Positions 40,665 through 64,000 of a DNA stretch of 64,000 nucleotides are shown piece by piece. The notes under the pieces were generated by a model. The model did not search any database. It was not told where the DNA came from and saw only the letters and a list, made by a program, of their open reading frames with translations. Both the position numbers and the translations under genes were made by a program. Each line of letters starts with the position of its first letter. Position 1 is the stretch's first letter. The DNA comes from Planctomycetota bacterium (GTDB lineage: Bacteria; Planctomycetota; UBA1135; UBA2386), in NCBI GenBank assembly GCA_965228735.1, contig OZ245838.1, forward strand, positions 3,328,001-3,392,000, given 5' to 3'.

Positions 40665-42026
40665 ATGCGCACTCGTCTGCCGTCGGCCACGATCGGCCTG
40701 TCTTCGTTCGTCACCGTCCTGCTGACCGCCACGGCCGTGAGTGCCCAGACCGAGTTCTGGGTCGACCCCGTGAACGGCAGCAACGGCAACACCGGCGCCT
40801 ACGACCAGCCGCTACTGACCGTGACGACCGCGCTCTCGCTCGCGGGCGCCAACGACCGGATCATGCTGCTGCCCGGCCTCTATGGCCCCACGTTCAACGG
40901 CGAGACGTTGCCGCTGTCCGTCGGTCAGGCGACGCAGCCCGGCGTCGAGATCCGCGGCGTCGGACGCACCGGCGACGTGGTGTTCGATCTCGCTGCCGGC
41001 GCGACCGCCGTGTTCCGGCTCATGAACGGCGCGGACGGCGCGCGCATCACCAACATCACGATCCAGAACATGGATCAGGTCGGCTGGTGGACGCGCGCGA
41101 TCAACAGCGGCAGCGGCGCCAACTCGGGCAACGCGGCCGACAACGTCGAGATCGATCGCTGCCAGTTCGTCGGCATCAACCGCGGCATCGTGCTGTGGAC
41201 CGCGGACAACTGCACGGGCTGGCAGGTGCACGACAACCTGTTCGTGAACTGCGCCAACGACGCGATCCTCGAGTACGTCGGCACGAACGAGTTCTCGCAC
41301 AACACGTTCTACTCCGGCGCGCAGAAGGCCTACATCAGCGACAGCTCGACGTCGACGTTCACCAACAACCTCATCGTCAACTACAACATTGCGTTCGAGA
41401 ACAACACGCCAGGCGCGCTGCTGAGCCGCTATCAGGGCAATTGGCTGTATCAGTGCACGACGAACCAGCAGGGCGCCGGCATGACCGGCACGCTGCCCCC
41501 ATCGAACGTGATCGGTACCGACCCCTTGTTCGTCAACGCCGCCGGCGGTGACTATCACGTGCAGCCGGGCAGCCCGACGATCGATGCGGGGGTCCTCCCC
41601 GCGATCGCGGGCGCCGACCTCGACGCGGTCTCGCGCCTCGTCGACGGCGACCTCGACGGCGTGCTCGAAGCCGACATCGGCTGCTACGAGGTCACGCCGC
41701 TCGATCTCGACATCAACTACGACCGAACGAGCGGCCTCATGCTGCTCGACGGCACGACGACGTTGTCGGGCGCCTACGCGTTCGTCGTGTTCTCGTTCGA
41801 CGACGGCGTCACGAGCTTCCCGGGCCAGGGCCCGATCCTGCTCGAACAGGCGTTCGTCGTGCCGTTCACGCTGCAGGGCCCGCTGCCGCAGCAATGGGCG
41901 CTGTCGTTCGCCAGCTACACGCCCCCGCCGGGCCAACGCCTCGTCTGCCAGATCCTCGGCGTCGCGAGCCCGACGCACGTCGGCGGCGCGGTGTTCGGCG
42001 GCAACCAGGTCTGGGTGCAGCTCTAG
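40665..42026 (+). CDS. secreted right-handed beta-helix protein (DUF1565-like N-terminus, choice-of-anchor Q-like segment)
   Basis: WVDPVNGSN..G..QPLLTV..A, LPGLY..GETLPL, DPLFV..GDYH..GSPTIDAG, DIGCYE; GGAGG SD. Confidence 0.8.
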   Translation: MRTRLPSATIGLSSFVTVLLTATAVSAQTEFWVDPVNGSNGNTGAYDQPLLTVTTALSLAGANDRIMLLPGLYGPTFNGETLPLSVGQATQPGVEIRGVGRTGDVVFDLAAGATAVFRLMNGADGARITNITIQNMDQVGWWTRAINSGSGANSGNAADNVEIDRCQFVGINRGIVLWTADNCTGWQVHDNLFVNCANDAILEYVGTNEFSHNTFYSGAQKAYISDSSTSTFTNNLIVNYNIAFENNTPGALLSRYQGNWLYQCTTNQQGAGMTGTLPPSNVIGTDPLFVNAAGGDYHVQPGSPTIDAGVLPAIAGADLDAVSRLVDGDLDGVLEADIGCYEVTPLDLDINYDRTSGLMLLDGTTTLSGAYAFVVFSFDDGVTSFPGQGPILLEQAFVVPFTLQGPLPQQWALSFASYTPPPGQRLVCQILGVASPTHVGGAVFGGNQVWVQL

Positions 42027-42052
42027 CCCGGCCAGCGGCGATACCGACGGCC

Positions 42053-42165
42053 GGCGGTACCGAACCCGTTTCGAATCCGCCACCTGCGAACCGGTCGGAG
42101 CGCGGAACGGAACCAGGGTTGGAGCGCCGCGGTGATGGCGGATTCGAAGCGGGTTCGGTAACGCC
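42053..42165. repeat. REP-doublet element, copy 2
   Basis: 31-nt arm identical to 19987-20017, inverted arm TGGCGGATTCGAAGCGGGTTCGGTAACGCC; different spacer; lies between convergent genes. Confidence 0.8.
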
Positions 42166-42224
42166 AAGAACGCCCGGGCTCGCGGTTTCGCGAACCCGGG
42201 CGTCGGCGGTCGCTCGCGCTGGAG

Positions 42225-43445
42225 CTACAGGCCCTGGAGCACCCAGCTCTGGCAGTTGCTCAGCGCGGTGCCCGTGACACCGCCGCAGAGGACGACGCAC
42301 TGCGACGCGATCGGCAGACCGGCGAACGCGGGCACCGGCGGCGTCGCCACGTTGAACGTCGTCGAACCGTTGCAGCCCGCGACGCCGGACGTGATGTTGA
42401 AGCCGAGCGTCGGGCCGGGGCCGACGAGCAGCGGGCCGCAGAGCGGCGGGACGGTCGGAGCACCCGCCGAGCACGAACCGATCGACAGCAGGCACCACGC
42501 GAGCGCCGCTTCGGGCGCCTGGTCGAGGCCGAGCTGGATCGTGTTGCCGAGGATCGGCGCGTTGCGCAGGCTGTGCCAGTTGGTGCAGGTCGGGCACGTG
42601 CCGTTGGCGCACGGGTTGCCGGCCGGCGAGCTGCCGCGCGGGTGGAGCGTCAGATCGGTGTAGGGATCGTTCGGCGACTGCACGAACGGGCAGCACGTGA
42701 CGGGGCCGTAGGTGATCGCCGGGCCGGCTGCGACGTAGGCGTAGTTGAACGAGTAGGTGCTCGGGCCGTCGGTCCAGTAGAGCGTGGCGGCGCCCCAGTC
42801 CGCGGCCACGCCCTGCGGCGGGGTGAACGCGGCCGTGCACGACGGCATCGGCGAGACGGTGAACGGCGAGCACGGCGTCGCGATCTGCGCGACGTAGAGG
42901 TTGCCGCCGGTGGCGTTGATCGCGGTGTAGAACACGAGGCCGTTGCCGTCGTCGACGGCGACGCCGCTGATGCGGTCACCGGGCAACGTGTTGATCATGC
43001 ACTGCGCGACGATGACGGGCGGGCAACCGATGATGCACTGCGTGAGCCAGTTCTGGTCGTCGACGATCCAGAGCTGGTTCATCGACTCGACGACGTCGAG
43101 GCCGCTCGCGTTCGCGGCCGCGGAAGACTTCGGGCACGGCATCGGCGGGCACACGATCGTGCAGCCGGTCGTGCCGGTGTAGCTCGCGAGCACCTGGCCA
43201 CTCGTCGCCCAGGTGTCGTTCGTGGTGCCGTCGAACGCGGTGCCGCCGGCCGCGAAGCTCGTGTGCGGCGGCATGCCCGGCGCCGGGCAGCCCGGCATCG
43301 CGACGCAGGCACCGTGCACGGTGCGCGCGAGCGACTGCGTCGTGCGGGTAAGGCCATTGAGGGAGTAGCCCTGCGCCGCGACCGTGCCGGCCGTGAGCGC
43401 GATGGCGAAGAGGGAGGACGTGAGAACGTGGAAGTTGTTGGCCAT
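42225..43445 (-). CDS. secreted Cys-rich protein with YWTD-like beta-propeller
   Basis: Signal ending VAAQ; 22 Cys by my count; PQGVAADWGAATLYWTDG. Confidence 0.75.
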   Translation of the reverse strand: MANNFHVLTSSLFAIALTAGTVAAQGYSLNGLTRTTQSLARTVHGACVAMPGCPAPGMPPHTSFAAGGTAFDGTTNDTWATSGQVLASYTGTTGCTIVCPPMPCPKSSAAANASGLDVVESMNQLWIVDDQNWLTQCIIGCPPVIVAQCMINTLPGDRISGVAVDDGNGLVFYTAINATGGNLYVAQIATPCSPFTVSPMPSCTAAFTPPQGVAADWGAATLYWTDGPSTYSFNYAYVAAGPAITYGPVTCCPFVQSPNDPYTDLTLHPRGSSPAGNPCANGTCPTCTNWHSLRNAPILGNTIQLGLDQAPEAALAWCLLSIGSCSAGAPTVPPLCGPLLVGPGPTLGFNITSGVAGCNGSTTFNVATPPVPAFAGLPIASQCVVLCGGVTGTALSNCQSWVLQGL

Positions 43446-43672
43446 GGGAGTGGGTTGGGTCAGGAGTCACCTCGGAAGGACCACCCCGGGCCGAGCGCAC
43501 GCGGAATCACCACGGATCGAACGCAATTCCGGCGGCTCTTGCGGACCTGGCCGATTGCGAACCGAATTCACCTCGAGAGCCGATTCTCGGGGCCACGGGC
43601 GATCCGCTGCCCGGACGTCGCCGTGCCATCGGGGCTTCACGGGACGGCAGGATTCGGTCACCATGCCGAATC

Positions 43673-44389
43673 ATGACCGAGTTCGGCCCGAGAACCGAAT
43701 CGACGTTCGTCGCCATCATCGCCGCCCGCGCGGGCCCCGATCGCCCCGATCGGCAGGATCCGCTGCGGCGCGCCGCGGACACGCTCAGCCGCGACCCGGA
43801 ACTCCGCCCCGCGCTCGCCGCCGACATCGAGGTGACCGCCGGGGACGCAGTGCAGGCGCTGCTCGCCTCACCGGTCGCCATCGTGCCGGTGTTGCAGCGA
43901 CTCAGTGACGCGATCCACCCCGAGCAGTTCGCGTTCGGGATCGGGGTCGGCTTGCTGAGCACGACGCTGCCGGCCGCGCGCTCGGCGCGCCGGCCAGCCC
44001 GGCTCGACGGTCCGTGTTGCCACGCCGCCCGCACGGCACTCGGAGCGGCGCAGAAGCGCGGCGCCTGGGCGACCGTCGCCGGGTTCGGCGCGCTCGACGA
44101 ACCGTTGACCGCGCTGCTCGAACTGATCGGCCGGCTGCGACAGCGCTGGACGGACAAGCAGGGCAGCTACGCGGTCGCGACCCGAACCGCGGCGCAGAAG
44201 GACGTCGCGGCGGAGTTCGACGTCAGTCCGTCGGTCGTCAGCGAGAGCCTCAAGGCCGCCAACTTCGACGTCGTGCGCCGCGGCGAGGCCGGCGCGATCG
44301 CGTTGTTCCGCCACTACGCCGGGCTCGAGCCGACCGCGCCAGAGAGCGACCCGGGCGCGCCCGCAGACAGCCGTCCGACACCCTCCTGA
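43673..44389 (+). CDS. SatD family protein with C-terminal HTH
   Basis: TAGDAVQ, FGIGVG, DGP..HAAR, WTDKQ, QKDVA..VSPSVVSESLK. Confidence 0.8.
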   Translation: MTEFGPRTESTFVAIIAARAGPDRPDRQDPLRRAADTLSRDPELRPALAADIEVTAGDAVQALLASPVAIVPVLQRLSDAIHPEQFAFGIGVGLLSTTLPAARSARRPARLDGPCCHAARTALGAAQKRGAWATVAGFGALDEPLTALLELIGRLRQRWTDKQGSYAVATRTAAQKDVAAEFDVSPSVVSESLKAANFDVVRRGEAGAIALFRHYAGLEPTAPESDPGAPADSRPTPS

Positions 44390-44442
44390 TCCTCGCAAGC
44401 GGCGCCGGTTTTCCGACCGCACCCGCGATACGATGCGCAGCC

Positions 44443-47400
44443 ATGTCTCGACGTCGGGTCGCGCGACTCGCTCTCGCCGCGCTGCTGCTGGCCAATGGTT
44501 CGAACGCGCAGCGCGTGCTGCGTAGCTTCACGGCCGACGATGGCTTGCCGCAGAACACGGTGAACTGCCTGCTGCAGGATCACCTGGGGTTCCTCGTCTT
44601 CGGCACGCAGAGCGGCATCGCGTGGTACGACGGCAAGCGGTTCACGACGTATCGCGCCGACCCGGCCGACCCCGACAGCCTGCCGATCGACAACGTCTGG
44701 GCCATGGTCGAACGCAGACCCGGCGAACTCTGGTTCGGCGGCCACCAGGGCCTCGCCGTGCTCGACCGGCGCACGGGCCGGGCCCGCCGGATCGAGACGC
44801 CGATCGCCAACCTGTCCGTCTACGCGCTGATGGTCGACGCCAGCGAGCGGCTGTGGGTCGGCGCGGCCCAGGGTCTGCTCTTGATCGGCGACGACGACCG
44901 GTTCATGCAACGCGAAGGGGCATTGGACCGGGCTTACGTCACCGGCCTCGCCCCGGCGCGGGACGGCGGCCTGTGGGTCGCGACCAACGGCCAGGGCCTG
45001 CACTACTTCGACCCGCTGGCGGGGACGTCGCGGCCCTACCGCCACGACGACGAGGACCCGCGTTCGCTGTCGAACGACCGGGTCTGGAGCGTGCTCGAGA
45101 CGAGCGACGGCACCGTATGGGCCGGCACGCGCGTCGGCCTCAACCGGCTCGATCACGAGACCGGCGCGTGGGACCACTTCCGGCACCATCCCAACGACGC
45201 GACGAGTCTGCCGAGCGACTGGGTGTGGCGGATGCTCGAAGACTCCGGCGGCCGACTCTGGGTCGGCACGCGCCAAGGCGGCCTCGCCCTCTACAACCCG
45301 GCGACCGCCACGTTCGAAGCGTTCCGGCGCAGCAATGCCGAGCCGAGAGCACTGATCGGCGATCGCGTCGCCTCGCTGGCCGAGGATCGTCGCGGCCGGC
45401 TCTGGGTCGGCACCACGGGCGGCGTATCCCTGATCGCTCCACGGCCAGCGCCGTTCGAGCCATGGGGCCCGGAAGCGAAGACCGCCGACACGTTGCCCAA
45501 CACGACGACGTGGGGCATCACGGACGCGCAGTCGCGCTTGTGGATCTGCACCTACGAGGGACTCTGGGTCGTCGACCCGCAGGCCGGAACACAGCAAGCG
45601 TTCCGCCATGACCCCGAGGATCCGACGTCGATCAACTCCGACTCGGTTTACCACGTCGCCGAAGACGCGGAGGGCCAGGTGTTGGTCGGAACCGCGCGGG
45701 GGCTCTGCCGGTTCGACTCGGCGACCGATACGTTCACCCGGTTCGAGAACGACCCCGAGAACCCCGACTCGCTCCACCTCGGTGGCGTCTATCGGCTGTA
45801 CCGCGACCGGCGCGACCGCCTGTGGATCGCTGCCGGCAGCAGCCTCGACCGCTGGCTCGGGAACGGTCGCTTCGCGCACTGTCGACCTGATGCGCGCAAG
45901 CGCCGGGCGATCTACTCCATCACGGAGGACACTGCCGGCCGCATCGTCTTCGGCGGCCACGACGGCCTGTGGCGACGGCACGATGACGGCACGATCGAGC
46001 GGCTCGGCGAGCACGTCGATGCGTTGCGACGTGGCGTCCTGACCATCGAACCCACGGGCGACGACCAGCTCTGGGTCGGCGGCCAGCTCGGCCTGGTGCA
46101 CCTCGATCTCGCGACGGGCAAGACGCGCACGATCGACGAGAGCGACGGCCTGCCGAGTCCCATCGTGAACACCGTGGTCGAGTCACCGACCGGTGAATTG
46201 TGGGTCTCGACCAACTGGGGCCTCGCGCGGATCGTCGACGTCAACACCGCGACCGAACGGATCTTCCGCTACACCGGCAGCGACCTGCTACCCGGCAACG
46301 AGTTCAACATGGGCTCGGCGTGCCTCGACTCCCGGGGTCGCCTGCACTTCGGGGGCATCGCCGGCATCATCAGTTTCGACCCCACGCGCATCCCGGTGCC
46401 GATCCCCGACCCGGTGGTCATCGCGACGGCGAACGCGGGAATGAGCGGCCGACCCGTGACCGCCGGCTCCCGAACGCGACCGCGATCGAAGAACCTGCTC
46501 CTGCCGCCGTACGCGGCCCACCTCGAGTTCGGGTCGGAGCACAGCCTGGTGAAGTTCCAGTTCGCCGTGATGCAGTTCGAGCATACCGACCGCAGTCGCT
46601 TCGAGTACCGGCTGGCCGGCCTCGACGACTGGGTCGCCGTCGACGAAGACTCGGTGACCTACGCCAACCTGCCGCCGGGCGAGTACGAGTTCGAGGTGCG
46701 CGGCCGCAACAACGCCGGCGTGTGGGCCGACGCCGTCAACAGCATCCGGGTCACCGTGCTGCCGGCGTGGTGGCAGTCGACCTGGTTCTTCGTGTTCGGC
46801 TCGTGTGCTGCAGCCGTGCTGCTCGCCGGCGCGTGGCGCTTGCGCACCCGGCAGTTGCGCCGCCACACCGATCTACTCGAGCTGCGCGCGGCCGAGCGCA
46901 CGGAAGAGCTCAGCACGACGGTCGAGTCGCTGCGCACGGAGATCGTCAACAGCCGGCAACTGCGCGGCCGCCTCGAACAGGCGCGCAAGATGGAGACGTT
47001 CGGCGTGATCGCGGCCGGCGTCGCGCACGACCTGAACAACGCGCTGTCCGGCATCGTGACGCTGCCGGACCTGCTGCTGGCCCGAATGCCGGAGGACGAT
47101 CCGATGCGGAAGTCGATCGCCGACATCCGCGGAGCCGGCGAACGGGCCGCGACCATCGTCCGCGAGCTGCAGTCGATGGGCCGTCGGCGACCGCTGTCGC
47201 TCACGCCGACCGATCTCAACGAACTCGTGACGAGCTACTGCCGTTCTCCGGAGTTCGAGCAGCTCGCGGCCAATCATCCGGACGTCGCGGTCGTCGTCGA
47301 CGTGCCGAAGGGCGAGGACGCCGAGCCTGTCACGATCGCCGCGGCGCCGGAGCAGCTCGTCCGGGCGCTCGCGAACCTCGCACTCAACGGCTTCGAGTGT

Positions 47401-48135
47401 CAGCCGGGCGGCGGTCGGCTGACGCTGTCGACTCGCATCGAACACGTCGTGGAACGGCGCGTGCGTTACGAGGTCATCGAGCCCGGGACCTACGCGGTCA
47501 TCGCGGTGGCAGACGTTGGGACGGGTATCGAACCGGACGATCTGCGGCGCTTGTTCGAGCCGTTCTTCAGCCGCAAGTCGCTCGGCAGCAGCGGCACGGG
47601 CCTCGGGCTGACGATCGCGTGGAACACGGTGCACGAACACGATGGCGTGATCGACGTCGAGAGCACGCCCGGCAAGGGCACGTGCTTCGAGCTCTACCTG
47701 CCGCTGCTGCACGCGCCGACCCCGAGCACGGCGAACGAACCGCCGGCGCCGCGCGGCAACGGCGAGTCGGTGCTCGTCGTCGACGACGAGTCCGAGCAGC
47801 GCCGCCTCGCCGTGGCCGCGCTCGAGGGCCTCGGCTATCGCGCGACGGCCGTCGCCACCGCCGCCGACGCGGTCGACCTCGCGAACGATTCGACGTTCGA
47901 TCTCTACGTGCTCGACGTGATGCTCGGCCCCGACTCCGACGGCATCGCGGCGTTCCGTGCGATCCGCGAAGTCGCACCCGACGCGCGCGCGATCCTCGCG
48001 ACCGGCCACACGGACGAAGCGCGTTCGGCGCTCGCGCGCGAGCTCGGGATCACGACCCGGCTCGACAAGCCGTACACGATCGCGGCGCTCGCGATCGCCG
48101 TGCGGCAGGGTCTCGACGGCGCGCGCCTGACGTAG
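44443..48135 (+). CDS. hybrid sensor kinase (Reg_prop beta-propeller, Y_Y_Y, HisKA, HATPase, REC)
   Basis: DGLPQNTV, repeated ED..G.LWVGT, YANLPPGEYEF, AHDLNN, GTGLGL, VDDE..LDVML. Confidence 0.93.
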   Translation: MSRRRVARLALAALLLANGSNAQRVLRSFTADDGLPQNTVNCLLQDHLGFLVFGTQSGIAWYDGKRFTTYRADPADPDSLPIDNVWAMVERRPGELWFGGHQGLAVLDRRTGRARRIETPIANLSVYALMVDASERLWVGAAQGLLLIGDDDRFMQREGALDRAYVTGLAPARDGGLWVATNGQGLHYFDPLAGTSRPYRHDDEDPRSLSNDRVWSVLETSDGTVWAGTRVGLNRLDHETGAWDHFRHHPNDATSLPSDWVWRMLEDSGGRLWVGTRQGGLALYNPATATFEAFRRSNAEPRALIGDRVASLAEDRRGRLWVGTTGGVSLIAPRPAPFEPWGPEAKTADTLPNTTTWGITDAQSRLWICTYEGLWVVDPQAGTQQAFRHDPEDPTSINSDSVYHVAEDAEGQVLVGTARGLCRFDSATDTFTRFENDPENPDSLHLGGVYRLYRDRRDRLWIAAGSSLDRWLGNGRFAHCRPDARKRRAIYSITEDTAGRIVFGGHDGLWRRHDDGTIERLGEHVDALRRGVLTIEPTGDDQLWVGGQLGLVHLDLATGKTRTIDESDGLPSPIVNTVVESPTGELWVSTNWGLARIVDVNTATERIFRYTGSDLLPGNEFNMGSACLDSRGRLHFGGIAGIISFDPTRIPVPIPDPVVIATANAGMSGRPVTAGSRTRPRSKNLLLPPYAAHLEFGSEHSLVKFQFAVMQFEHTDRSRFEYRLAGLDDWVAVDEDSVTYANLPPGEYEFEVRGRNNAGVWADAVNSIRVTVLPAWWQSTWFFVFGSCAAAVLLAGAWRLRTRQLRRHTDLLELRAAERTEELSTTVESLRTEIVNSRQLRGRLEQARKMETFGVIAAGVAHDLNNALSGIVTLPDLLLARMPEDDPMRKSIADIRGAGERAATIVRELQSMGRRRPLSLTPTDLNELVTSYCRSPEFEQLAANHPDVAVVVDVPKGEDAEPVTIAAAPEQLVRALANLALNGFECQPGGGRLTLSTRIEHVVERRVRYEVIEPGTYAVIAVADVGTGIEPDDLRRLFEPFFSRKSLGSSGTGLGLTIAWNTVHEHDGVIDVESTPGKGTCFELYLPLLHAPTPSTANEPPAPRGNGESVLVVDDESEQRRLAVAALEGLGYRATAVATAADAVDLANDSTFDLYVLDVMLGPDSDGIAAFRAIREVAPDARAILATGHTDEARSALARELGITTRLDKPYTIAALAIAVRQGLDGARLT

Positions 48136-48156
48136 GGCCGAGCAGCCGCACGCGAC

Positions 48157-49965
48157 TCAACGCCGAACGAGCACCTGCACCGAGTTCGTCGCGTAGAGCT
48201 GCCCCGTCGCGGCCTCGTACGAGAAGCCCTGCACGTGGAACCGCAGACCCTCGAGGCTCGGATCGGCCGGGATCGGCACGGTCAGCGACGCGGTCGGCGC
48301 CGCGGCCGAGAAGCCGCCGAGGCCGAGCGGGACGACGGGCGTCGCGAGCAGGATGCGGCCGGACCAGCCGTAGAGCGGCTGGTTGTCGGGCGTCACGCTG
48401 CCGAGGAACGACCAGAGGTCGTTCGCCCCGGCACTGAACGGCGGCACGAGGTCGACGTAGGACGACAGCCCGGTGCGCGGTTCGCCGCGCAGCTTCAGAC
48501 CGCGCGCGATCCCCGTGGCCGCCAGCAACTCGGCGGCGTCCGGGCGGTTGCCGATGATCGGGATCGTCGGCGTGCCGGTGGTCTGCAGCAGACTGCGGAT
48601 CGCGGCGCCATCCAGCGCGGCCGCCGCCGCCGGATCGAGCTGCGCGACCGCGGCGCCGCGCAGACCGGCGACGACGCCCGTCACGATCGCGCTCGCCGAC
48701 GACGTGCCGCCGAACCCCGAGGCGTAGAGCTGGCGCGGATCACCCGGGTCGAACATCGTGCCGTAGCCCGCGGTCGTGACCCAGTAGCCCCAGCCGTTGC
48801 AGTCGATGCGCGAACCGTAGTTGCTGAAGTTGGCACGCGACGCGATGCCCGCGCCCGACGCCGCGACGACGATCGCCCCCGAGTCGCGCACGTTGCGATT
48901 GAACAGCCCCCCGAGCTGCGGATGGTCGAGATCGACGCTGCCGTTGCCCGCCGCCTCGACGACGATGATGCCGAGCCCGGTCGCGGTCTCGATCGCGTCG
49001 TAGATCAGCTGGTCCCACTCCACGGGCAGATACAGGAAGCCGATCGGCCCGGCGATCTGCTGCTCGATCAGCAGCACGTCGCCGGCGGACAGAACCGTCA
49101 ACCCGGTGAGGATCGCGCCCGCGACGTCGGGCCAGCCGAACGCTTCCGACGTCGACACGTAGAACTCGACATCGGGCGCCAGACCCGTCACGCCGTAGCG
49201 GTCCGGATCGGCAGCGATGATGCCGGCGACCGCGGTGCCGTGGTCCTCGTAGAAGCCGCCGAACGGCAGTCCCACGTTCGAACTCGGCCGCAGTGCCGAG
49301 ATGTCCTCGTGCTGCAGCTGCCAGCCGTACTCGACGTCGACCACGCGGATGCCGTTCCCCGAACCGCCGGTCAGGAACAGTAACGCCGCGGCATCGACGC
49401 CCGACGGTGCGGGCATGCGGTGCCCCTGGAACGTCGTGAAGTCGGGCGTCGTCGGCGGGATGTCGCCGAACGGCCGCGCAGCCTCGGTCGAGAGCACGCC
49501 GGGCGGCGGCGCGGGCAGCGACCGGACGTAGGCGAGCTCGACGACCGCGAGTTCGTTGAGTGCGCGCACGAGCGCGCGTGAATCGTGACCGCCGGTCGTC
49601 GTCACCTCGAAGTAGAGCCCGAAGTCGACCGCGGGCCGCGCCCCGTCCGGCAGCGAGGCGAGCTGGCGGGCGCGCAACGCCGCGAGCTCACGCTCCTGGC
49701 GTTCGAAGAACGGCCGCACCTGCCGGCCGCCGAGCACCTCGCGGATCGAGGCATCGACGATGCGCCGGTCGCGCACGAGCTCCGGCCGGCCCTCGACGAG
49801 CTTCACGAGCACCCGATCCTGCGCCGCCGCGACGGGCAGGTCGTTGGCGATCGCCTTCGGCATGACGACGCGCCGCGGCATACCTGCCTGCGCGCAGAGC
49901 GGACCGAGACCGGCGGAGAACGTCATCGCGAACGCGGCGACGCCGAGCAGGGAGCAGCGGTTCAT
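48157..49965 (-). CDS. secreted S8 (subtilase) serine peptidase
   Basis: VDVEYG, DHGTAVAG, AAGNG, FSNYG, GGTSSAS. Confidence 0.92.
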   Translation of the reverse strand: MNRCSLLGVAAFAMTFSAGLGPLCAQAGMPRRVVMPKAIANDLPVAAAQDRVLVKLVEGRPELVRDRRIVDASIREVLGGRQVRPFFERQERELAALRARQLASLPDGARPAVDFGLYFEVTTTGGHDSRALVRALNELAVVELAYVRSLPAPPPGVLSTEAARPFGDIPPTTPDFTTFQGHRMPAPSGVDAAALLFLTGGSGNGIRVVDVEYGWQLQHEDISALRPSSNVGLPFGGFYEDHGTAVAGIIAADPDRYGVTGLAPDVEFYVSTSEAFGWPDVAGAILTGLTVLSAGDVLLIEQQIAGPIGFLYLPVEWDQLIYDAIETATGLGIIVVEAAGNGSVDLDHPQLGGLFNRNVRDSGAIVVAASGAGIASRANFSNYGSRIDCNGWGYWVTTAGYGTMFDPGDPRQLYASGFGGTSSASAIVTGVVAGLRGAAVAQLDPAAAAALDGAAIRSLLQTTGTPTIPIIGNRPDAAELLAATGIARGLKLRGEPRTGLSSYVDLVPPFSAGANDLWSFLGSVTPDNQPLYGWSGRILLATPVVPLGLGGFSAAAPTASLTVPIPADPSLEGLRFHVQGFSYEAATGQLYATNSVQVLVRR

Positions 49966-51504: not shown

Positions 51505-52013
51505 CGATCCTCCTCGAGCATGTGCTGTTGCAACCACGCGGCGGCGAGCTGCCACCGGCGCTTCACCGAGCGCTCCGACAGGTGCAGCGTCACGGCGAGC
51601 TCCGCCACCGACTGCCCGCCGTAGAACTTCAGCTCCGCGAGCCGCGCGAGCTCGGCGTCGATCCCGGCGAGAGCCGTGAGCGCGGCGTCGAAGTCGAGCG
51701 CGAAGTCCTGCGGCTCGGGCCGCGCGGCGAGTCCGCTGATCGTCGTGCGACGCAGGCCGGCGCCGCGCTTGCCCGCCTGTCGCCGGCGCGCGTGATCCGT
51801 GAGGATCCGCCGCATCGCCTGCGCCGCGAGACCGAGGAACGCGCCGCGCTCGAGCTCGGGCGCATTGCGGCTCCGGCTGAGCCGCAGCCAGACCTCGTGC
51901 GCGAGCGCGGTCGGCTCGAGCGTGTGGTCGGACCGTTCGCCGGCCATCGCGGCGTCGGCCAGCTGGCGCAGCTCGGCGTAGACCACGGGCAACAGGTCGG
52001 TTTGCTCGGACAT
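51501..52013 (-). CDS. ECF sigma factor, TIGR02999 (planctomycete/verrucomicrobial kinase-associated) type
   Basis: LLPVVYAELRQLA, HTLEPTALAHEVWLRL, AMRRILTDHARR..KRG, SERSVKRRW..AWL. Confidence 0.92.
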   Translation of the reverse strand: MSEQTDLLPVVYAELRQLADAAMAGERSDHTLEPTALAHEVWLRLSRSRNAPELERGAFLGLAAQAMRRILTDHARRRQAGKRGAGLRRTTISGLAARPEPQDFALDFDAALTALAGIDAELARLAELKFYGGQSVAELAVTLHLSERSVKRRWQLAAAWLQQHMLEEDR

Positions 52014-52132
52014 CTCGGTGGACACAGTCTCGGGAGGAGAGCGCGCGGGGGCAGGGTGGCGGGCCACTTTTTCGGCGATTGGCCCGCGCCGCGACGATCG
52101 GGCGCTCTTGCGGCGGATACCCGACCAAGGCC

Positions 52133-55453: not shown

Positions 55454-55462
55454 GAGTCACCC

Positions 55463-56739: not shown

Positions 56740-58146
56740 ATGCCGACCCGCTGCCCCGTCGTGACGGCTGCCGCCGTCCTGCTCACCGCTTCGTCCGTCA
56801 CAGCCCAGCTCGACTGGCTGCAGGCCGCGATCACGAATCGACCGATGGCGCGTCACGAAGCTGCAATGACGGCGGACGCCACGGGCTCGGGCGTGCTGCT
56901 GTTCGGTGGCAGCACCAACGGCGGCGTCGCCAACGACACCTGGCGCTGGAGCGGCAACGCGTGGCAGCAACTCACACCGGCCAACAAGCCCCCGGCGCGG
57001 TACGGCCCGCGCATGGTCACGGACACGACGCGAAACGTAGTCGTCATGTTCGGCGGTGTTGATCAATTGCTGCTGACACCGTTCGGGGACACCTGGGAGT
57101 GGAACGGCCAGGACTGGACGCAGCGGACACCGGCCGGTTCGCCGGCTCCCCGGAGCGGCCACGCGATGGCGTTCGACAACGCGCGCTCTCGCACGGTGCT
57201 GTTCGGCGGGCGCGCCGGCACGATCCTCCTCGATGACACGTGGGAGTGGGACGGGACACAGTGGCAACAGCAGACGCCAACGGCCGCCCCGCCCGCCCAG
57301 GAGGGTCACGACATGGCATACGACGCCGCGCACGGCTTCGTGGTCATGGCCGGCCTGACGGACATCGTGCCCGTGGGCTCATCGCCCACCATGCCAGGGA
57401 CGTACAAGTGGAACGGCACCCGGTGGTTCTTCGTCGGCGAGCGCCCGCCGGGCAACGGCGGACGGCTGACGTATGACGCAGCCCGCGAACGCGTGGTCCT
57501 CTACGGCGGCGAGGGCGGCAACGGCGTGCCGGCGCCCGTCGGCGTGTGGGACTGGGACGGTCGGCTGTGGCACAGCCGCACTACGGCGACCAACCCGCCG
57601 CTGCGGTTCTGGCACATGCTCGCCTACGATCCGAGCGCCGAGACGATCGTCGCGTTCGGCGGCCGCGATGACACGCAGCCGCCACTGCAGATCCGCAAGA
57701 ACGACACCTGGCTGCTAGGGCCCGTCACGCCGGCCAGGACCCAGATGTTCGGCACCGGCTGCAGCGGCAGTCAGGGCATCCTGGAGCTCGACGCTCCCGG
57801 CCGACCGTGGCTCGGCAGTCCGTTCCTCGCGGAATGGCGGAACACTCCGAGCGCCACGCTCCTCGCTGCGATCCTCGGCGGTTCGAACCAGAGCTGGGGC
57901 ACCACACCGCTGCCGCTCGACCTCGGCGCGTTCGGCATGCCGGGCTGCGACCTGCTCGTCGCTCCCGACGCCATCGCCGCGATCTTGCCATCGAGCCACG
58001 GCTACACGCTGACGATCCGAATCCCGGCCAACACCGCACTGCTCGGTCAGACGCTCTACCTGCAGGGCATGGCCCTCGACCCGACCGCGAACGCCGGCGG
58101 CGCCATCGCGAGCAACGGCCTCGAGTTCACGATCGGCAGTCGGTGA
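56740..58146 (+). CDS. secreted Kelch/galactose-oxidase-like beta-propeller protein
   Basis: Repeated P.AR..HAM.D....LFGG....DTWEW.G..W; signal ending VTAQ. Confidence 0.88.
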   Translation: MPTRCPVVTAAAVLLTASSVTAQLDWLQAAITNRPMARHEAAMTADATGSGVLLFGGSTNGGVANDTWRWSGNAWQQLTPANKPPARYGPRMVTDTTRNVVVMFGGVDQLLLTPFGDTWEWNGQDWTQRTPAGSPAPRSGHAMAFDNARSRTVLFGGRAGTILLDDTWEWDGTQWQQQTPTAAPPAQEGHDMAYDAAHGFVVMAGLTDIVPVGSSPTMPGTYKWNGTRWFFVGERPPGNGGRLTYDAARERVVLYGGEGGNGVPAPVGVWDWDGRLWHSRTTATNPPLRFWHMLAYDPSAETIVAFGGRDDTQPPLQIRKNDTWLLGPVTPARTQMFGTGCSGSQGILELDAPGRPWLGSPFLAEWRNTPSATLLAAILGGSNQSWGTTPLPLDLGAFGMPGCDLLVAPDAIAAILPSSHGYTLTIRIPANTALLGQTLYLQGMALDPTANAGGAIASNGLEFTIGSR

Positions 58147-58275: not shown

Positions 58276-58312
58276 ACGTGCCAACAATAGACGATGACAG
58301 AAGGGACTCCTG

Positions 58313-59365
58313 TTGCCCCCCATGATCGATGGCCTCGAACTCATCCACGCGATCGCCGCGCGAGTCGACCCCGCCAGAGGTGCGGCCACTCCGCACACGC
58401 GAGCCACGAGGCCTGATCAAGACGGGGGTTACAGCGGCTCGATCCAACTGCGGAACGGCCGCCGCGAACCCGCGGTGCTCTACCCGATCCGAGGCGCTCT
58501 CGGGATGCTTGCCGTCGATCGACTGGCCAACGTCACCAGCGGTGAAAGGCGCCCGCGGATCGTTCTGGCCACGCTCATCGGCGCCAAGGTCGGCGCCGCC
58601 CTCGCTCGCCATGGGATCGGCTACCTCGATCTCGCGGGCAATTGTCACCTGGAACTCGACGGCGGCGAGGTAACGATCCACATCGAAGGTCGGCGCCAGC
58701 CCGAGCACACACGCGCTTCGGCCGGAGCCCTGCGCGAAGCCGGCTATCGGGTGTTGTTCGCCCTGCTCGCCGATGAGAGCCTCCTGGCACAGACCGTTCG
58801 CGAACAAGGCGACGTGGCCGGCACGAGTCGGCACGCCGCCCACACCCTGCTCACGCGGCTTCGTGACGAAGGCCTGCTCATTCGCACCGGCCGTAGCGCT
58901 CACGTGTTTGCGCCCCACGGTCGCGCCGCGTGCATCGATCGCTTCACGAACGGCTGGGCCGACGTCCTGCGGAGCCGACTCGACCTCGGCCGTTTTCGAC
59001 TGCGCCAGTCCGACCCGGACGCGGCAGCACAGCATGTCGCAACCGTCATGCGCGCGACGGGAATACCATTCGGCTTCGGAGCGACGCGGGGTTCCGCGCG
59101 TTGGTTGCACCACCTGGAGAGCAACGAGACGACGATCCATGTGACCGATTGGCCTCCTGACCTGGCGCGACGCCTCGACGCGGCGCCGGATCGCGATGGC
59201 ACGCTGCAGGTGTTTCGAACGATGTCGATCCATGATCTATCCGCAGAGTTCGAGGAAACAGCGCATCCGTTGCTCATCCACGCCGAGCTCGCTCGCTCCA
59301 GTGATCCACGCGCCCGGGAGACGGCGATCCTGATGGCCGGACACCTGCGAACGGAACCTGGTTGA
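58313..59365 (+). CDS. abiEi: type IV TA AbiEi-family antitoxin
   Basis: GIGYLDLAGNCHL, wHTH RVLFALL..TVRE..AG.S, C-terminal HPLLIHAEL..DPRARETA. Confidence 0.82.
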   Translation: MPPMIDGLELIHAIAARVDPARGAATPHTRATRPDQDGGYSGSIQLRNGRREPAVLYPIRGALGMLAVDRLANVTSGERRPRIVLATLIGAKVGAALARHGIGYLDLAGNCHLELDGGEVTIHIEGRRQPEHTRASAGALREAGYRVLFALLADESLLAQTVREQGDVAGTSRHAAHTLLTRLRDEGLLIRTGRSAHVFAPHGRAACIDRFTNGWADVLRSRLDLGRFRLRQSDPDAAAQHVATVMRATGIPFGFGATRGSARWLHHLESNETTIHVTDWPPDLARRLDAAPDRDGTLQVFRTMSIHDLSAEFEETAHPLLIHAELARSSDPRARETAILMAGHLRTEPG

Positions 59366-60168
59366 TGGCGCCCGATCACCACGCACTGCTCGCGCGACTC
59401 GCCAGCTCGGTGCCCGGCCGTCGCATCGTCGTGGTCGGCGCAGCCGCACTGCGTTGGCATTTCCCGTCGTTCCGTGCGACCCTCGACCTCGATGTCTGCA
59501 TCGCGATCGATCGCCTCGAACTCGATCGTGCCGACCGGTTGCCGAGCGAATGGTCGCGACACTCGACGCTACCACACCGTTGGACGACACCGACGAACGA
59601 GATCGTCGACGTCTTGCCCGCGGCGCCCGATCTGCTCGACACGGGCAAGGTGTCGTGGCCAGACGGCACGACGCTGGATCTCACCGGCATCGATCTCGCG
59701 ATGCGGGACAACACGACCTACAGCGACCAACTACCGCCGGATGTTCGCGTGGCGACCCGCCGTGCCTTGTTCCTGACCAAGGTGGCCGCGTTTCTCGATC
59801 GGCCGCACGAACGCCAGAAGGACCTCGGCGACCTCGCGTTGCTCATCGATCGTTACGTCGAAGACGACGATCCGAGGTGCTTCGACGCGCCAGAGCTCAG
59901 ACGGGCAGCGGACCACGGCCACGACATCGAGTGGGATCTGCGACCGGCGTTCCTGCTCGGCGCCGACCTACGAGCCGTCTGTACTCGGCGTCACACGGCC
60001 CGCCTGCGAACGTTCAGCGATCAAGTTCGCGATCCACAACATCGCGAACACCACTGGCTCCGGCAGTCCGCTCCCGCCTCGTGGCAATCCGATCCCGCGG
60101 CGCTATCGGACCGGATGAACGCGCTCACATCCGGGTTCGACGGCTTCTCGAATCACGGCCGGTCGTAA
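59365..60168 (+). CDS. abiEii: type IV TA AbiEii-family nucleotidyltransferase toxin
   Basis: VVGAAAL, RATLDLD, VDVLP, KVAAFLDR, KDLGDL; TGATG overlap with antitoxin. Confidence 0.82.
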   Translation: MAPDHHALLARLASSVPGRRIVVVGAAALRWHFPSFRATLDLDVCIAIDRLELDRADRLPSEWSRHSTLPHRWTTPTNEIVDVLPAAPDLLDTGKVSWPDGTTLDLTGIDLAMRDNTTYSDQLPPDVRVATRRALFLTKVAAFLDRPHERQKDLGDLALLIDRYVEDDDPRCFDAPELRRAADHGHDIEWDLRPAFLLGADLRAVCTRRHTARLRTFSDQVRDPQHREHHWLRQSAPASWQSDPAALSDRMNALTSGFDGFSNHGRS

Positions 60169-60217
60169 CGGCCGCCCCGGTGTCGCAACCGCCAGCGACC
60201 CCGTATCCTCGCCGGCG

Positions 60218-62017
60218 ATGCGCGCGCTGCCTCTCTCGCTCCTGCTCACCGCCTGCGCGACCGCGCCGGCGCAATACCCGCCGGGACTGATCCTGCCGCC
60301 GCGTTCGCCGAACGCGGTCACGGGCACGCAGCTGCGTCCCGCGCTCTCGAACCTCGCGCTCGCGGACCGCGAACAGCTCCTGTGGCACGAGCTCGCGGCC
60401 GGAAACGTGCCGACGTTCTTGCGCACGCTCGTGCCGATCACGACGTCCGCGGTGATCCAGGGCCAGACGCGCACCGCGACGTTCTGGTGCACGCCCGACT
60501 ACGTCGGCATCGGCCGGGACAGCGACTGGTTCCGCATGCCGATGACGCCGACGCTCGCGCAGCAGCTGGCCGATCGTCTCGAGTGCGTGCTGCCGACGCG
60601 CAAGATGGTCGACGCGATCTGGACGCACGCGCCGGTCAAACTCGCGCCGTTCCCCTACCACCCGTCGTCCTACAACATCCTCTCGAGCGACCTGTTCCAT
60701 CAGCACCACCTGCAGATCGAATCGCAGCGCGGTGGTGCTCAGCAGAACCTGCTGACCGCGGGCATCAAGAAGGACGTCGTGAGCTCGGCGCGCATCGCGA
60801 CCAACCCGGGGCGCGTCTGCATCTACGGCTGGCACTACCAGAGCGGCACGCCGATCCAGCCGCTCTACAGCGGCCACACGATGTCACACGTCGACTACAG
60901 CCACGGCATCCGGCTCGTGGCCCGCGCGATGGAAGTGGACGGTCAGCGCACGACCGTGGACTCGGTGCTCGCCGATCCGCACCTGCACGTGCTGCTCAGC
61001 GACGAAGGCGCGTTCAGCAGCTGGCGCTATGCGACGGGCACGGTCGAGTCGTTCCCGTTCCGCGATCGCTTCCCGGCGGGCGGGCCCGAACGCACGAGCT
61101 GGCGCGCGAAGTTCACGAGTCCCGTGTCCGTACCGGCTCCCGCGACCGCACCGGCGCCGAGCGGCGATCCGACCGTGCTGCGCATCATGGACCCGGCGGG
61201 CGGCACCGACACGCTGCGCGTCTCTCCCGGACTCGTGACGGACGTCGGCTTCGAGGCGGACCTGCTCTGCCTGCACCGACCGCAGCTGACGGCCGACGGC
61301 TTCGAACGGATCGGCATCTTCGTGCGCGACCGGGCGAACGGTGCGTTCGAGGGCACGTTGTCACAACAGGGCGCGTGCTTCGCGCTCACCTGGGACTCGC
61401 ACACCGGCCGCCTGCAGTGCCTGCGCGCGCACGGCGGCGCGGTCGTCGACCTGTTGCCGGCGCCGCGATTCGTTCCCGGCACCGCGTGGCGCCGCTTTCG
61501 CATCGAGGCCGCGGGATCGGCGCTGGCGTTCTTCCTCGACGGCGAACGGCTGCTGTCCGTGACCGACGGCTCGCACCCGCACGGCGACTTCGGCATCGGC
61601 TACCACGAATACTTCGCGACCAACGCCAACATGCGCGGCACGCTCGTCGACCGCTGCCACGCCGACGTGCCCGGCGCGTTCGCCATGTCATTCCGCCCCG
61701 GCCCGCTGCCCGGCTCGCTCGTGCTGCGGCGCCGCCGCGGCATCCCGGGCGACCCGACGTTCACCGCGATCACGACCGTGCCCGGCCAGTTCCCGAACGG
61801 CTGGTTCTTCGGCCTCGACCCGACGCCGGCCGACCTGCTGTGGCAGGCGCAGTCCGGCCACCCGCTCTTCGTCACGAACCTCGACAGCTCGGGCAATCGC
61901 GACTTCTTCGCGAGCGGGCTGCCGCTCGGCCTGCCCGTGCAGGGGGTCGCGCTCGATCTCGACCCGTCGCTAAGGCGCTGGCAAGCGAGCCGGCCGACGG
62001 CCATCACCGTGCGCTAG
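60218..62017 (+). CDS. secreted multi-domain hypothetical protein (uncharacterised N-domain, ConA-like beta domain)
   Basis: Signal/possible lipobox LTAC; GNVP.FLR, PDY..IG, PMTP, KKDVV, IYGWH, VDYSHGIRLV; W.R.RIEA.G..FLDG. Confidence 0.8.
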   Translation: MRALPLSLLLTACATAPAQYPPGLILPPRSPNAVTGTQLRPALSNLALADREQLLWHELAAGNVPTFLRTLVPITTSAVIQGQTRTATFWCTPDYVGIGRDSDWFRMPMTPTLAQQLADRLECVLPTRKMVDAIWTHAPVKLAPFPYHPSSYNILSSDLFHQHHLQIESQRGGAQQNLLTAGIKKDVVSSARIATNPGRVCIYGWHYQSGTPIQPLYSGHTMSHVDYSHGIRLVARAMEVDGQRTTVDSVLADPHLHVLLSDEGAFSSWRYATGTVESFPFRDRFPAGGPERTSWRAKFTSPVSVPAPATAPAPSGDPTVLRIMDPAGGTDTLRVSPGLVTDVGFEADLLCLHRPQLTADGFERIGIFVRDRANGAFEGTLSQQGACFALTWDSHTGRLQCLRAHGGAVVDLLPAPRFVPGTAWRRFRIEAAGSALAFFLDGERLLSVTDGSHPHGDFGIGYHEYFATNANMRGTLVDRCHADVPGAFAMSFRPGPLPGSLVLRRRRGIPGDPTFTAITTVPGQFPNGWFFGLDPTPADLLWQAQSGHPLFVTNLDSSGNRDFFASGLPLGLPVQGVALDLDPSLRRWQASRPTAITVR

Positions 62018-62220
62018 GAGCCCGGTCTACGAGAAGAGCCCAGCCAGGTCGCTACTGGCGCTCGGCGACTTCGTCCGTCTCGGTTGGCAAGTGGGTCGAC
62101 GTGGACCGCGGCCCGCCAGCTGGCCTGCATCGAGCACCCCACCTGCGTCGATTCGCGACGAAATCCGGTGCGGCGCGGCGGTCGTCTCACGCTCATCGGG
62201 AGGAACCCAGAGGTCGCCCG

Positions 62221-63357
62221 ATGAAACCGACTGCCATCCTCACGCTCGTCGTCCTGCTCTCCTCGGCCGCCGCGGCCCAGACCTTCGTCGTCGATGCGAA
62301 CAACGGGCCGGGCGCGAGCTTCACCTCGATCGCCACGGCCGTGGCCGCGGTCCCCGATGGCGCCGTGCTCGAGGTGCGCGCCGGCGCCTACGACTCGTTC
62401 GCGATCCAGAACAAGAGCCTCACCGTGCTCTGCGACCCGGGCACGTCCGTTGCCGCGACCGGGCTCTTCGCCAACGCGTTCGCGAACGTCTCGGACCTTG
62501 CGGCCGCCCAGAGCGTCACGATTGCGGGGCTCTCATTCAGCGGGTTGCTCGTCACGGGCATCATCGCGTGCGTAGACTGCGCGGGTACGGTCGTCATCGA
62601 TCGTTGTACGATAGGCAGCAGCTTCGGCCCGATGGGCCGCGTCCAGGCGACGGACTGCGACAACGTGGTCGTGCGCGACTGCATGGTCGCGTCACGGGAG
62701 ATCGGGCCCGGCGCCATCCAGTGCGTCGACAGCAACATGCTTCTCTCGGGCTGTGACATCGACGGCGAGTCGTTCGCGATCCGACTCGGTGGCGGCCGCG
62801 TACACGTGACCGACTGCATCCTCGCGAGCACGCCACAGAACATCCAGTTCGCGACGGCGGTCTGCTTCCTCACCGGCGGCGAGCTCGTGCTCAACGGCAG
62901 CACGCGGCTGAGCTCCACCGCGAGCACACCGCAGCCCGCGGCGGTCGGCAACGGCTTCGTCGCGCTCGATCCGAGCACGGTGTTCTCGGGACTCACGAGC
63001 CCGCCCTTCGATCCGAACCTCACGGTCACGACGCGCCCGATCCCGCGGCTCACGTCGTCACGTGGCCTGCTCGGCGGCGTCGCGAACGCTTCGCTCGCGG
63101 TGCCGATCGGCGGCAGCGGCGTGCTCTGCGTCGGTTTCGCCGGCGGTCCGGCGGCGGTGCCCGGCGTGATCGATCCGATCTGGCTCCAGACCGGCGCTGT
63201 GCTCGAAGCACTGGGCAGCGGACCCGTTCTCGCCGGTGCCTACGCGGTGCCCAACGCGCCGTGGGTGATCGGCGTGCAGATCGCGTGGCAGGGCGTCGTG
63301 CTCGATCCAAACGGCGCCGTGCGGGCGAGCAACGCGGCGGTGTATACGCACTACTGA
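62221..63357 (+). CDS. secreted beta-helix protein
   Basis: Signal ending AAAQ; VVDANNGPGASFTSIATAV..GAVLEVRAGAY; repeated V..C.I; GAGG SD. Confidence 0.8.
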   Translation: MKPTAILTLVVLLSSAAAAQTFVVDANNGPGASFTSIATAVAAVPDGAVLEVRAGAYDSFAIQNKSLTVLCDPGTSVAATGLFANAFANVSDLAAAQSVTIAGLSFSGLLVTGIIACVDCAGTVVIDRCTIGSSFGPMGRVQATDCDNVVVRDCMVASREIGPGAIQCVDSNMLLSGCDIDGESFAIRLGGGRVHVTDCILASTPQNIQFATAVCFLTGGELVLNGSTRLSSTASTPQPAAVGNGFVALDPSTVFSGLTSPPFDPNLTVTTRPIPRLTSSRGLLGGVANASLAVPIGGSGVLCVGFAGGPAAVPGVIDPIWLQTGAVLEALGSGPVLAGAYAVPNAPWVIGVQIAWQGVVLDPNGAVRASNAAVYTHY

Positions 63358-63458
63358 TCTGCTCGCTGGTCGCAATTCTCCTACGACCACCGCACGCTGC
63401 CGCCCACCGTGGCGTCCGGAGCGAAGCCCGCGACATCCCTCGCCGGACGGACGCCGAC

Positions 63459-63914
63459 TCAATCGAACACGAACGGCGGCCGCCCGCGCTTTTCCCGCAT
63501 GCCGTTCATCGCGCGCAGGATCGCGGGGCGGCGCACGATGCGGCGCTCGAGCGCGTGCTTGCCCGGGAAGTCCATGATCAGCAGCCCGACGAGGATCATC
63601 AGCAGGCCCTGGCCGGGCAGCAGCAGCAGGATGAGGCCGACGATCACGAGCACCGTGCCGAACGTGTTGCGCAGGACGAGCCAGAGCCAGCCGAGCAGCG
63701 ACCGTTGCCGTGCGCGCGCCGCCGTCGAAATCGCGAAACGGTCGGCCGGCAGCCGCGCGACGAGCAACGGCAGGAACACGATGGCGAGCAGGACCGTGCC
63801 GACACCCGTGCCGAACATCGTCCAGAACACGACGGGGCTCGCGAGCCAGTCGAGCACCGGCTCCCACCACGCGGACGGTGCCGCGGGGTCGCCCGTCGCC
63901 GGGTCCTGCGTCAA
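63459..63914 (-). CDS. PGPGW-domain membrane protein
   Basis: RLPADRF, RN..G.VL..G..LLPGQGLL, DFPGK, RGRPPF. Confidence 0.85.
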   Translation of the reverse strand: MTQDPATGDPAAPSAWWEPVLDWLASPVVFWTMFGTGVGTVLLAIVFLPLLVARLPADRFAISTAARARQRSLLGWLWLVLRNTFGTVLVIVGLILLLLPGQGLLMILVGLLIMDFPGKHALERRIVRRPAILRAMNGMREKRGRPPFVFD

Positions 63915-64000
63915 CTCCCGACCGTCGCGCGACCGGCGTCGGAGGCCGTGACGCCCGCAGCGTTGCCCGCGAGCGGGTCGAACACCGCGGCCTGCACGTA
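63911..64000 (-). CDS. C-terminal end of a secreted protein (runs off window end)
   Basis: My translation YVQAAVFDPLAGNAAGVTASDAGRATVGS-stop, matching the shared C-terminal domain; stop overlaps TTG 63914. Confidence 0.75.
   Translation of the reverse strand, partial: YVQAAVFDPLAGNAAGVTASDAGRATVGS

Follow-up and report, generated by a model that had tools for sequence, protein, structure and literature searches.

Introduction

A close described counterpart of the protein domain reported here is the type A C-terminal domain (CTD) of the type IX secretion system (T9SS; TIGR04183; FlgD_ig-like, PF13860; SprA/PorV/PorU), which is likewise an immunoglobulin (Ig)-like sandwich that occurs once per protein and ends hundreds of unrelated Sec substrates. 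Our domain comes from a 64,000-nucleotide stretch of a Planctomycetota genome (the window, C1:3328001-3392000; the genome, G000, is a single contig of 7.19 Mb with 69% GC and 93% completeness), in which an earlier note on the DNA had read the ends of seven proteins as one candidate lineage-specific sorting signal. On homologous S8 peptidases the T9SS CTD takes the slot of our domain; it has about 72 positions, whereas the domain described here has 130 and also occurs N-terminally (12/306 called genes), internally (1) and on its own.

Signals for secretion by the type II system (T2SS), a route for folded proteins, offer a second comparison. In PMC7949064, loop 3 of the PelI/Pel3 Fn3 domain is described as a T2SS signal contacting GspC and GspD. 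Our domain is similar to this seven-stranded accessory sandwich, which bears a secretion determinant on a folded periplasmic intermediate; the determinants treated there are composite and substrate-specific, whereas here one homologous domain is found on hundreds of cargoes. All multi-copy carriers tested have a GspD/E/F locus.

Dockerin type I (PF00404) likewise ends many exported proteins of other Planctomycetota as one small module, but it has another fold, and no cohesin-like partner was identified here. PF00404, searched with a positive control, matched nothing in G000 and none of the domain copies, and identity with dockerin is rejected on that ground; dockerin expansions and the domain did not co-occur in the 80 genomes searched. 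The PEP-CTERM/exosortase and GlyGly-CTERM/rhombosortase systems, as described in PMC3237569, share with the domain a many-to-one terminal homology, a sporadic distribution and exchange with other tails, and they co-occur with the more widespread T2SS. These tripartite signals, like LPXTG, have a terminal membrane helix and a basic cluster, whereas the folded domain has neither: no helix is predicted beyond residue 50 in 299/306 carriers, as the earlier note had stated for the window, and the median net charge of the domain is -3, on which basis a tripartite signal is rejected. The genome's one exosortase belongs to a polysaccharide-type locus elsewhere, and a single PEP-CTERM-like protein was seen.

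The single-copy, mostly terminal domain, the signal peptides of its carriers (by a heuristic), their lack of a membrane anchor, their composition, the tail swaps on their homologs, the absence of PorV and the presence of GspD/E/F/G/J/K-like genes are established observations. We tentatively favour the reading that the domain is a folded, probably uncleaved export tag read by a type II secretion system.

A large domain family without a catalogue entry

The family profile was grown from the tail of the window's Kelch protein alone, with trimmed re-alignment, and searched without regard to position against 84,343 six-frame open reading frames (ORFs). In this genome count, which had been proposed at the outset, 308 ORFs matched at E<1e-3 with one domain each, 282 of them with the domain ending at most 15 residues from the stop, and reversed-ORF decoys gave 0 matches. 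The family makes up about 6% of the genome's genes, and about 370-380 genes are reached when diverged copies are counted; these extended sets come from tail-only searches and are excluded from the position statistics. Gene calls (5,367 genes) were made with our own hexamer model, not a standard tool.

Over its approximately 130 columns the domain has a median pairwise identity of 23%, with one Gln conserved at 96%, one Pro at 92%, one Gly at 89%, and two Cys, at 62% and 69%, that likely form a disulfide. The AlphaFold model of the Kelch-protein copy, with a predicted local distance difference test score (pLDDT) of 95.4, is all-beta with its last strand ending at the terminus, and the domain is predicted to be an Ig-like beta-sandwich, in agreement with the fold class first proposed for it. 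VIA-align returned generic Ig-like matches (best Z 8.4, root-mean-square deviation (rmsd) 3.3, 109 aligned), and the Pel3 Fn3 domain ranked 46th (Z 7.3, rmsd 2.7, 82 aligned), no better than many other Ig folds. Foldseek gave no match at E<=0.001; the T9SS CTD was not among the structure matches listed by either program. A predicted homodimer of the domain scored 0.32 against a mark of 0.42.

Pfam searches with the window proteins and 45 domain copies assigned no family to the domain and gave one weak GO-like_E_set match (E 0.044), NCBIfam had no match to it, the best sequence match in the PDB had an E of 0.4, and searches of the open-access literature listed no paper that describes it. The domain is uncatalogued, as the earlier note had supposed. 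With 27,746 relatives (representatives at 50% clustering, E<=0.001) and a share of about 6% of a bacterium's genes, its lack of a family model is a large annotation gap; 30 unnamed Planctomycetota clusters in the ESM Atlas also match it, with that lineage seen for the three listed. The expected restriction to particular lineages is borne out by a survey of 301 Planctomycetota genomes, 66 of which have the domain, mostly with entire families present or absent and six genomes with a single match; in the window's order it is found in 17/17 genomes besides G000. The domain is a ready marker of the probable exoproteome in uncultured planctomycete lineages.

Position, copy number and cargo

The domain had been described as always terminal, which is too strong: among 306 called genes it is terminal in 280, followed by an extension of 16-50 residues in 13, N-terminal directly behind the signal peptide in 12 and internal in 1. 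About seven proteins, counted by eye, consist of a signal peptide and the domain alone, and the domain is never tandem (308 domains in 308 ORFs). A second, distant carrier genome, G166, belongs to another family outside the window's order (median ortholog identity 41%, 59% GC, 86% complete) and has 34 ORFs with the domain, 30 of them terminal and 4 with it far from the end. In the 13 genes with an extension (e.g. G000 4294128, 2282327, 2026848 and 5417970), the extension ends in a hydrophobic, strand-like segment.

That the carriers have signal peptides is supported genome-wide: a signal peptide was found at some start near the called one in 272/297 carriers compared with 1,797/4,313 other proteins, using a hydrophobicity heuristic, not SignalP, that over-calls in the background. 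The cargo is diverse, with 111 clusters, the largest of 104. Twenty scanned proteins (4 of them non-carriers) included Vps10, sulfatase, beta-lactamase(-like), multicopper oxidase, di-haem peroxidase, S8, M14, amidase, Kelch and beta-helix families, with 5 of the 20 lacking a family match. Eight carriers have c-haem (CxxCH) motifs, one of them confirmed as a di-haem peroxidase, and carriers cluster in the genome (79 adjacent pairs vs 25 expected). One carrier (L191, G000 741402-744449), with GerMN, Golvesin-like and Amidase_3 matches, is kept in G166 at 44% identity; it is either an exception that stays in the periplasm or a wall-lytic enzyme that is secreted.

In carriers as in other exported proteins of the genome, signal peptides very often end in A-x-A with Gln after it. 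An [AGS]Q near the signal-peptide end occurs in 243/269 carriers and in 731/1,544 other exported proteins, and the glutaminyl cyclase family PF05096 has no match in the genome, M28-type cyclases not being covered by that search. N-terminal pyroglutamate as a carrier-specific trait is rejected, since [AGS]Q is also common in other exported proteins and PF05096 is absent.

An Ig-like fold is common to many accessory domains, and the domain could in principle be a ligand-binding module similar to a carbohydrate-binding module (CBM), or a folding or stabilising domain, that has spread through extracellular proteins without any part in sorting. The stand-alone copies, whose loops vary, and the occurrence of CBMs in the same slot agree with this, but such a module would need to suit peptidases, oxidases, peroxidases and propellers alike, and it would have to occur strictly once per chain and be present or absent in whole families, which makes the explanation highly unlikely.

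The position data also bear on likeness to the T9SS. T9SS tail models had 0 matches on 6 window proteins and, in Pfam, on 45 domain copies, and that library gave scores to true FlgD_ig/T9SS-like tails of S8 homologs; a genome-wide TIGR04183 search gave 0 matches, with its control silent too. PorV (PF19572) was absent from G000 and from 34 further carriers (0/35 in total; control positive in B. thetaiotaomicron). SprA (PF14349) had 0 matches with its controls likewise silent, and no SprA-sized barrel was recognised by eye among 19 proteins of >1,300 aa. The single C25 peptidase gene lacks the domain, and no C25 match was found in the 2.31 Mb read of G166. Given no profile match, no PorV, a C25 peptidase without the domain and a position that is not strictly C-terminal, identity with the type A CTD is rejected, and the T9SS-like model of the earlier note fails in its specifics, the N-terminal and stand-alone copies included. 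An unrelated system of similar design, in which the C-terminal strands are read by an unknown barrel translocon of the outer membrane and the domain is cut off by a peptidase, would account for the 282/308 terminal copies, for the last strand at the terminus and for the FlgD_ig/T9SS-like tails that substitute on S8 homologs. A C-terminally cut signal is not expected at N-termini, so the 12 N-terminal copies, on cargo equally low in lysine, speak against cleavage; in addition, PorV is missing, the C25 peptidase is not common to G166 and no large barrel candidate is common to both genomes (by a heuristic screen, G166 being 86% complete). We consider this system unlikely.

Amino-acid composition and inferred location

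Carriers differ from other signal-peptide proteins in composition, with a median lysine content of 0.37% (n=348) vs 2.6% (n=490), carrier/other ratios of 0.16 for K, 0.44 for E and 0.52 for R, and a K/(K+R) of 0.09 vs 0.24. Along their full length they are rich in Asn, Thr, Ser and Gly and depleted in K, E and R, and the depletion persists on the cargo alone. Lysine contents of carriers and non-carriers within five paralog families are 0.47/2.38, 1.07/2.42, 0.86/2.38, 0.17/1.38 and 1.56/3.93%, and in G166 the domain with up to 250 upstream residues has 0.84% vs 4.39% in exported orthologs.

A composition class defined by K+E+R <10% and T+N+S+G >28% holds 312 soluble proteins, with 257 carriers among them. 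Its remaining 55 members comprise, among others, the FlgE hook, three pilin-like proteins, 11 lipobox hits, several barrel-like proteins and further diverged tails. As the composition of carriers resembles that of the flagellar hook and pilins, carriers are probably extracellular and, judged from their sequences, probably end outside the outer membrane. Lysine is just as scarce in S8 homologs of other organisms that lack the domain (0.61% vs 0.56%, matched for GC-type composition), so that low lysine points to location and not to lysine-specific chemistry. The domain marks most soluble, non-lipidated proteins of extracellular composition in several planctomycete lineages. Five lysine-poor secreted proteins without it (G000 891893, 2954019, 5690029, 5970101 and 7038004) have a MAM-like C-terminal domain, with a PF00629 match on one.

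Amino-acid cost was considered as a cause of the composition and explains little, at 21.96 vs 22.58 ATP per residue. Extracellular proteins are described as favouring cheap residues such as Gly and Ser in passages of PMC2932507 and PMC3223724 that leave lysine aside.

The least probable of the explanations considered is covalent attachment, with the near-invariant Gln as acyl donor for a transglutaminase-like enzyme and lysine avoided against self-cross-linking. The 96% conservation of the Gln, the fact that lysine is the most depleted residue, also relative to arginine, and an exported transglutaminase-like protein common to G000 and G166 would fit. This protein, however, is fused to an esterase-like domain, Glu and Arg are depleted too, the Gln is replaced in an intermediate subfamily, and the equally lysine-poor S8 homologs without the domain indicate a general extracellular trait.

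Tails that replace the domain on homologous cargo

The domain is carried by 23/120 homologs of the window's S8 peptidase, every copy being terminal. Other S8 homologs have as their last domain FlgD_ig, which scores weakly as a T9SS tail, RTX repeats, CBM2, CBM64 or 3-coathanger (positions checked on 9 + 9 proteins), and further ones in a C-terminal Cys motif and hydrophobic helix. The latter tail (P0343-P0351, P0360), composed of a Cys-Gly-Leu motif, a hydrophobic helix and an Arg cluster, is a tripartite sorting signal, with no NCBIfam match on the three scanned. For the window protein at 60218, 26/52 homologs whose coverage of the query is at most about 80% terminate with a short linker rich in Ser/Thr and W-x-x-[YFH], which looks like a second undescribed terminal tag and had no NCBIfam match on the five tails scanned; within these shorter-coverage homologs (P0277-P0325) two are named Sumerlaeota, one of which (Ca. 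Sumerlaea) has the W-x-x-[YFH] end.

Two types of cargo in the genome exist in two forms, one a carrier and the other a lipoprotein that lacks the domain:

1245429/2655148: 57% identity over 585 aa
2321269/3255024: 34% identity over 783 aa

In a third carrier/lipoprotein pair the lipobox is doubtful. With export tails, anchors and lipid anchors all found on homologous cargo, the domain is interchangeable with export signals and anchors alike; of the export or attachment role first proposed, both kinds of tail were indeed found in the slot, and neither is singled out by it.

Some of these replacements support a surface tether, in which the domain, after export by any route, would bind non-covalently to a lipid-anchored scaffold, lipopolysaccharide or a surface layer, in the manner of a dockerin or a lipid anchor. 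Such a role is compatible with that of an export tag, and we regard it as a serious but doubtful alternative. The domain is found at either end of proteins and alone, its cargo is shared with the lipoproteins above, and a lipobox is found by heuristic in 7/315 carriers vs 171/1,151 other exported proteins. In addition, CBM2, CBM64 and Cys plus membrane-helix tails occupy its slot on S8 homologs, and dockerin expansions (>=12 matches) occur in 0/33 multi-copy carriers vs 5/47 other genomes, although that exclusion is based on five genomes from four families. Many binding modules occur in tandem, unlike this domain; export-signal tails (T9SS-like, RTX) occupy the slot too; and no scaffold or receptor was found among the envelope proteins common to G000 and G166. 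If the domain were a tether, it would define a new cell-surface display system.

Large lysine-poor probable lipoproteins at G000 2655148-2660505, 2691436-2703361 and 5166246-5169569 (Big_5 match on one) apparently have a common C-terminal module, which is also found on two proteins with the domain N-terminal or internal and is a possible surface scaffold; those of the lipoproteins that were tested had no match in G166 at E<1e-4.

Secretion machinery and the proposed export route

Proteins with c-haem fold in the periplasm before export, and type II secretion carries folded proteins (PMC7949064). The c-haem cargo must fold in the periplasm first and needs a route for folded proteins, which type II secretion fits; the signal peptide and periplasmic folding that characterise T2SS substrates are both indicated, in the 272/297 carriers with a heuristic signal peptide and in the 8 with CxxCH motifs. 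In the export-tag reading, carriers would be exported by Sec to the periplasm, where folding and cofactor loading would take place, and the conserved surface of the domain (Gln, Pro, Gly) would be recognised by the type II machine. Tagged proteins would then cross the outer membrane via the type II secretin channel and remain outside it, with the domain presumably not cleaved.

The genome encodes seven secretins and has three Omp85 matches. A gspD/E/F and pseudopilin set, pilMNOQ, a second pilin operon and a twin-secretin/TPR/ExbB/ExbD operon are common to G000 and G166. An ATPase and a three-helix protein adjoin gspD, and pseudopilin genes are contiguous in G166; the names of the ATPase, the three-helix protein and the pseudopilins are assigned from gene position and sequence motifs. 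In 80 of the phylum's genomes, a GspD-like secretin was found in 33/33 multi-copy carriers, 4/6 genomes with a single match and 24/41 non-carriers (5/41 at E<1e-100). Of the co-occurring machinery sought through profiling, this candidate was found in every multi-copy carrier, but it is not limited to them.

The search for a dedicated partner covered 982 reciprocal best hits between G000 and G166, from which 77 envelope candidates were scanned in Pfam (8/77 without a match) and 27 in NCBIfam. None was found in this hunt, in which two secretins only were profiled, neither confined to carriers, and which left multi-pass membrane proteins outside. No fixed link of the domain to a machine was seen in the gene neighbourhoods of the seven secretin and three Omp85 loci.

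Several points weigh against a type II export tag. The GspD-like secretin is non-specific, as the matches in non-carriers show, and related genomes are not independent of one another; both secretin models were built from two carriers; and the twin secretin (33/33 multi-copy carriers, 6/6 single-match genomes, 30/41 non-carriers) fits equally well. The GspD-like protein scores 263 bits (cut-off 351) and the GspK-like protein 31 bits (cut-off 130), and GspL (PF05134) was not found in the genome with a positive control. The roughly seven proteins of signal peptide and domain alone are hard to explain for a pure tag, and the carrier conserved in G166 is a peptidoglycan amidase, typically a periplasmic activity. 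The T2SS signals described in PMC7949064 are composite and substrate-specific, not one portable domain. Finally, the composition thresholds were set after the carriers had been seen, at least 20 soluble proteins of the class have neither domain nor lipobox, and lipoprotein paralogs of the same composition without the domain suit an anchor better.

A wider form of the export-tag reading is possible, and we hold it more loosely: the domain would be a dedicated portable tag by which several planctomycete lineages send their entire soluble exoproteome (6-7% of genes) through a type II-type channel, with the Sumerlaeota W-x-x-Y tail in the same role in another phylum. Such a tag would be to this machine, whose secretion signal has so far resisted definition, what the T9SS tail is to its own. 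If a type II system reads the domain, the question of the T2SS signal becomes directly testable with one portable domain, which might also be used for the export of folded, cofactor-loaded proteins.

The twin-secretin operon (L161, G000 6769699-6784599; L045) encodes two large secretins, TPR proteins, an ExbB/TolQ-like and two ExbD-like proteins, is weakly similar to Akkermansia Amuc_1098 and has a secretin that matches in 69/80 Planctomycetota genomes; in G000 the operon encloses an ankyrin gene and a 132-codon domain copy without a signal peptide. A pilin-type operon kept in G166 (L165, G000 1395519-1414788; L055) encodes a 1,735-aa GspK-like protein, several N-methyl pilins, a TPR protein and an Amuc_1101-like PilM.

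The seven tails of the window

All seven terminal peptides quoted in the earlier note were located in the window, in open frames running to a stop codon:

40665..42026, + strand: 453-aa secreted beta-helix protein (DUF1565); diverged domain copy at ~41676-42026
42225..43445, - strand: 406-aa secreted Cys-rich protein, no Pfam family; domain at ~42225-42620, E 1.2e-11
48157..49965, - strand: 602-aa secreted S8 peptidase (PF00082); domain at ~48157-48543, E 3.3e-12
56740..58146, + strand: 468-aa secreted Kelch propeller (Kelch families); domain at ~57742-58146, E 1.3e-24, the copy used for folding
60218..62017, + strand: 599-aa secreted protein, no Pfam family; probable strongly diverged copy at ~61667-62017
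62221..63357, + strand: 378-aa secreted protein, weak beta-helix match; domain at ~62974-63357, E 2e-6
63911..64000, - strand: 463-aa secreted propeller protein, only its last 29 codons and stop in the window; domain at ~63911-64315, E 2.7e-19

The last of these, the edge gene, runs on in the genome to window position 65302. Planctomycetota account for nearly all of the named full-length homologs of window proteins, which reach 75% identity. The 5 clear carriers in 64 kb are close to the 3.3 expected, so that the window is typical of the genome.

The claim that the seven tails share one domain stands directly for five, which match the family profile (E 1e-24 to 2e-6); pairwise, the seven are barely alike, and those of 40665 and 60218 link to the family only by profile-profile comparison, having no significant match even in a tail-only search (E 5.8 and 100). 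Ortholog-tail profiles for these two were built from 54 and 66 proteins, respectively. The 40665 profile aligned with the family at an HHalign value of 74.7% (E 2.6e-5, 79 columns), with internal control segments at 0.2-0.4%. The 60218 profile reached 8.8% directly and 76.8% (E 2.1e-5) against an intermediate subfamily, which itself aligned with the family at 89.5%. Among genome matches at E<1, 22/26 for the 40665 profile and 15/22 for the 60218 profile were family members, at a base rate of 8%. By these comparisons both tails are probable diverged members, with 60218 the weaker case; the full 60218 protein, folded without an alignment, had a pLDDT of 33. The mature chain of the 40665 protein has 1 Lys.

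The literal consensus proposed for the tails fits only 4/7 of them, but in end-anchored form it fits 108/5,367 called proteins, all 108 in the family, vs 4 reversed. The description of the seven proteins as unrelated was overstated, as one propeller repeat (DTWEWDG) is common to 56740 and the edge gene.

A 367-aa protein at 38664-39767 (+), with a signal-peptide-like start, zero lysine and an extracellular-type composition, lacks the domain and is an exception within the window. Neighbouring genes include a SatD-like gene followed by a hybrid sensor kinase (43673-48135), an AbiEii-family nucleotidyltransferase (59365-60168), and a Ser/Thr kinase adjoining a probable extracytoplasmic function (ECF) sigma factor, named from its sequence (50047-52025).

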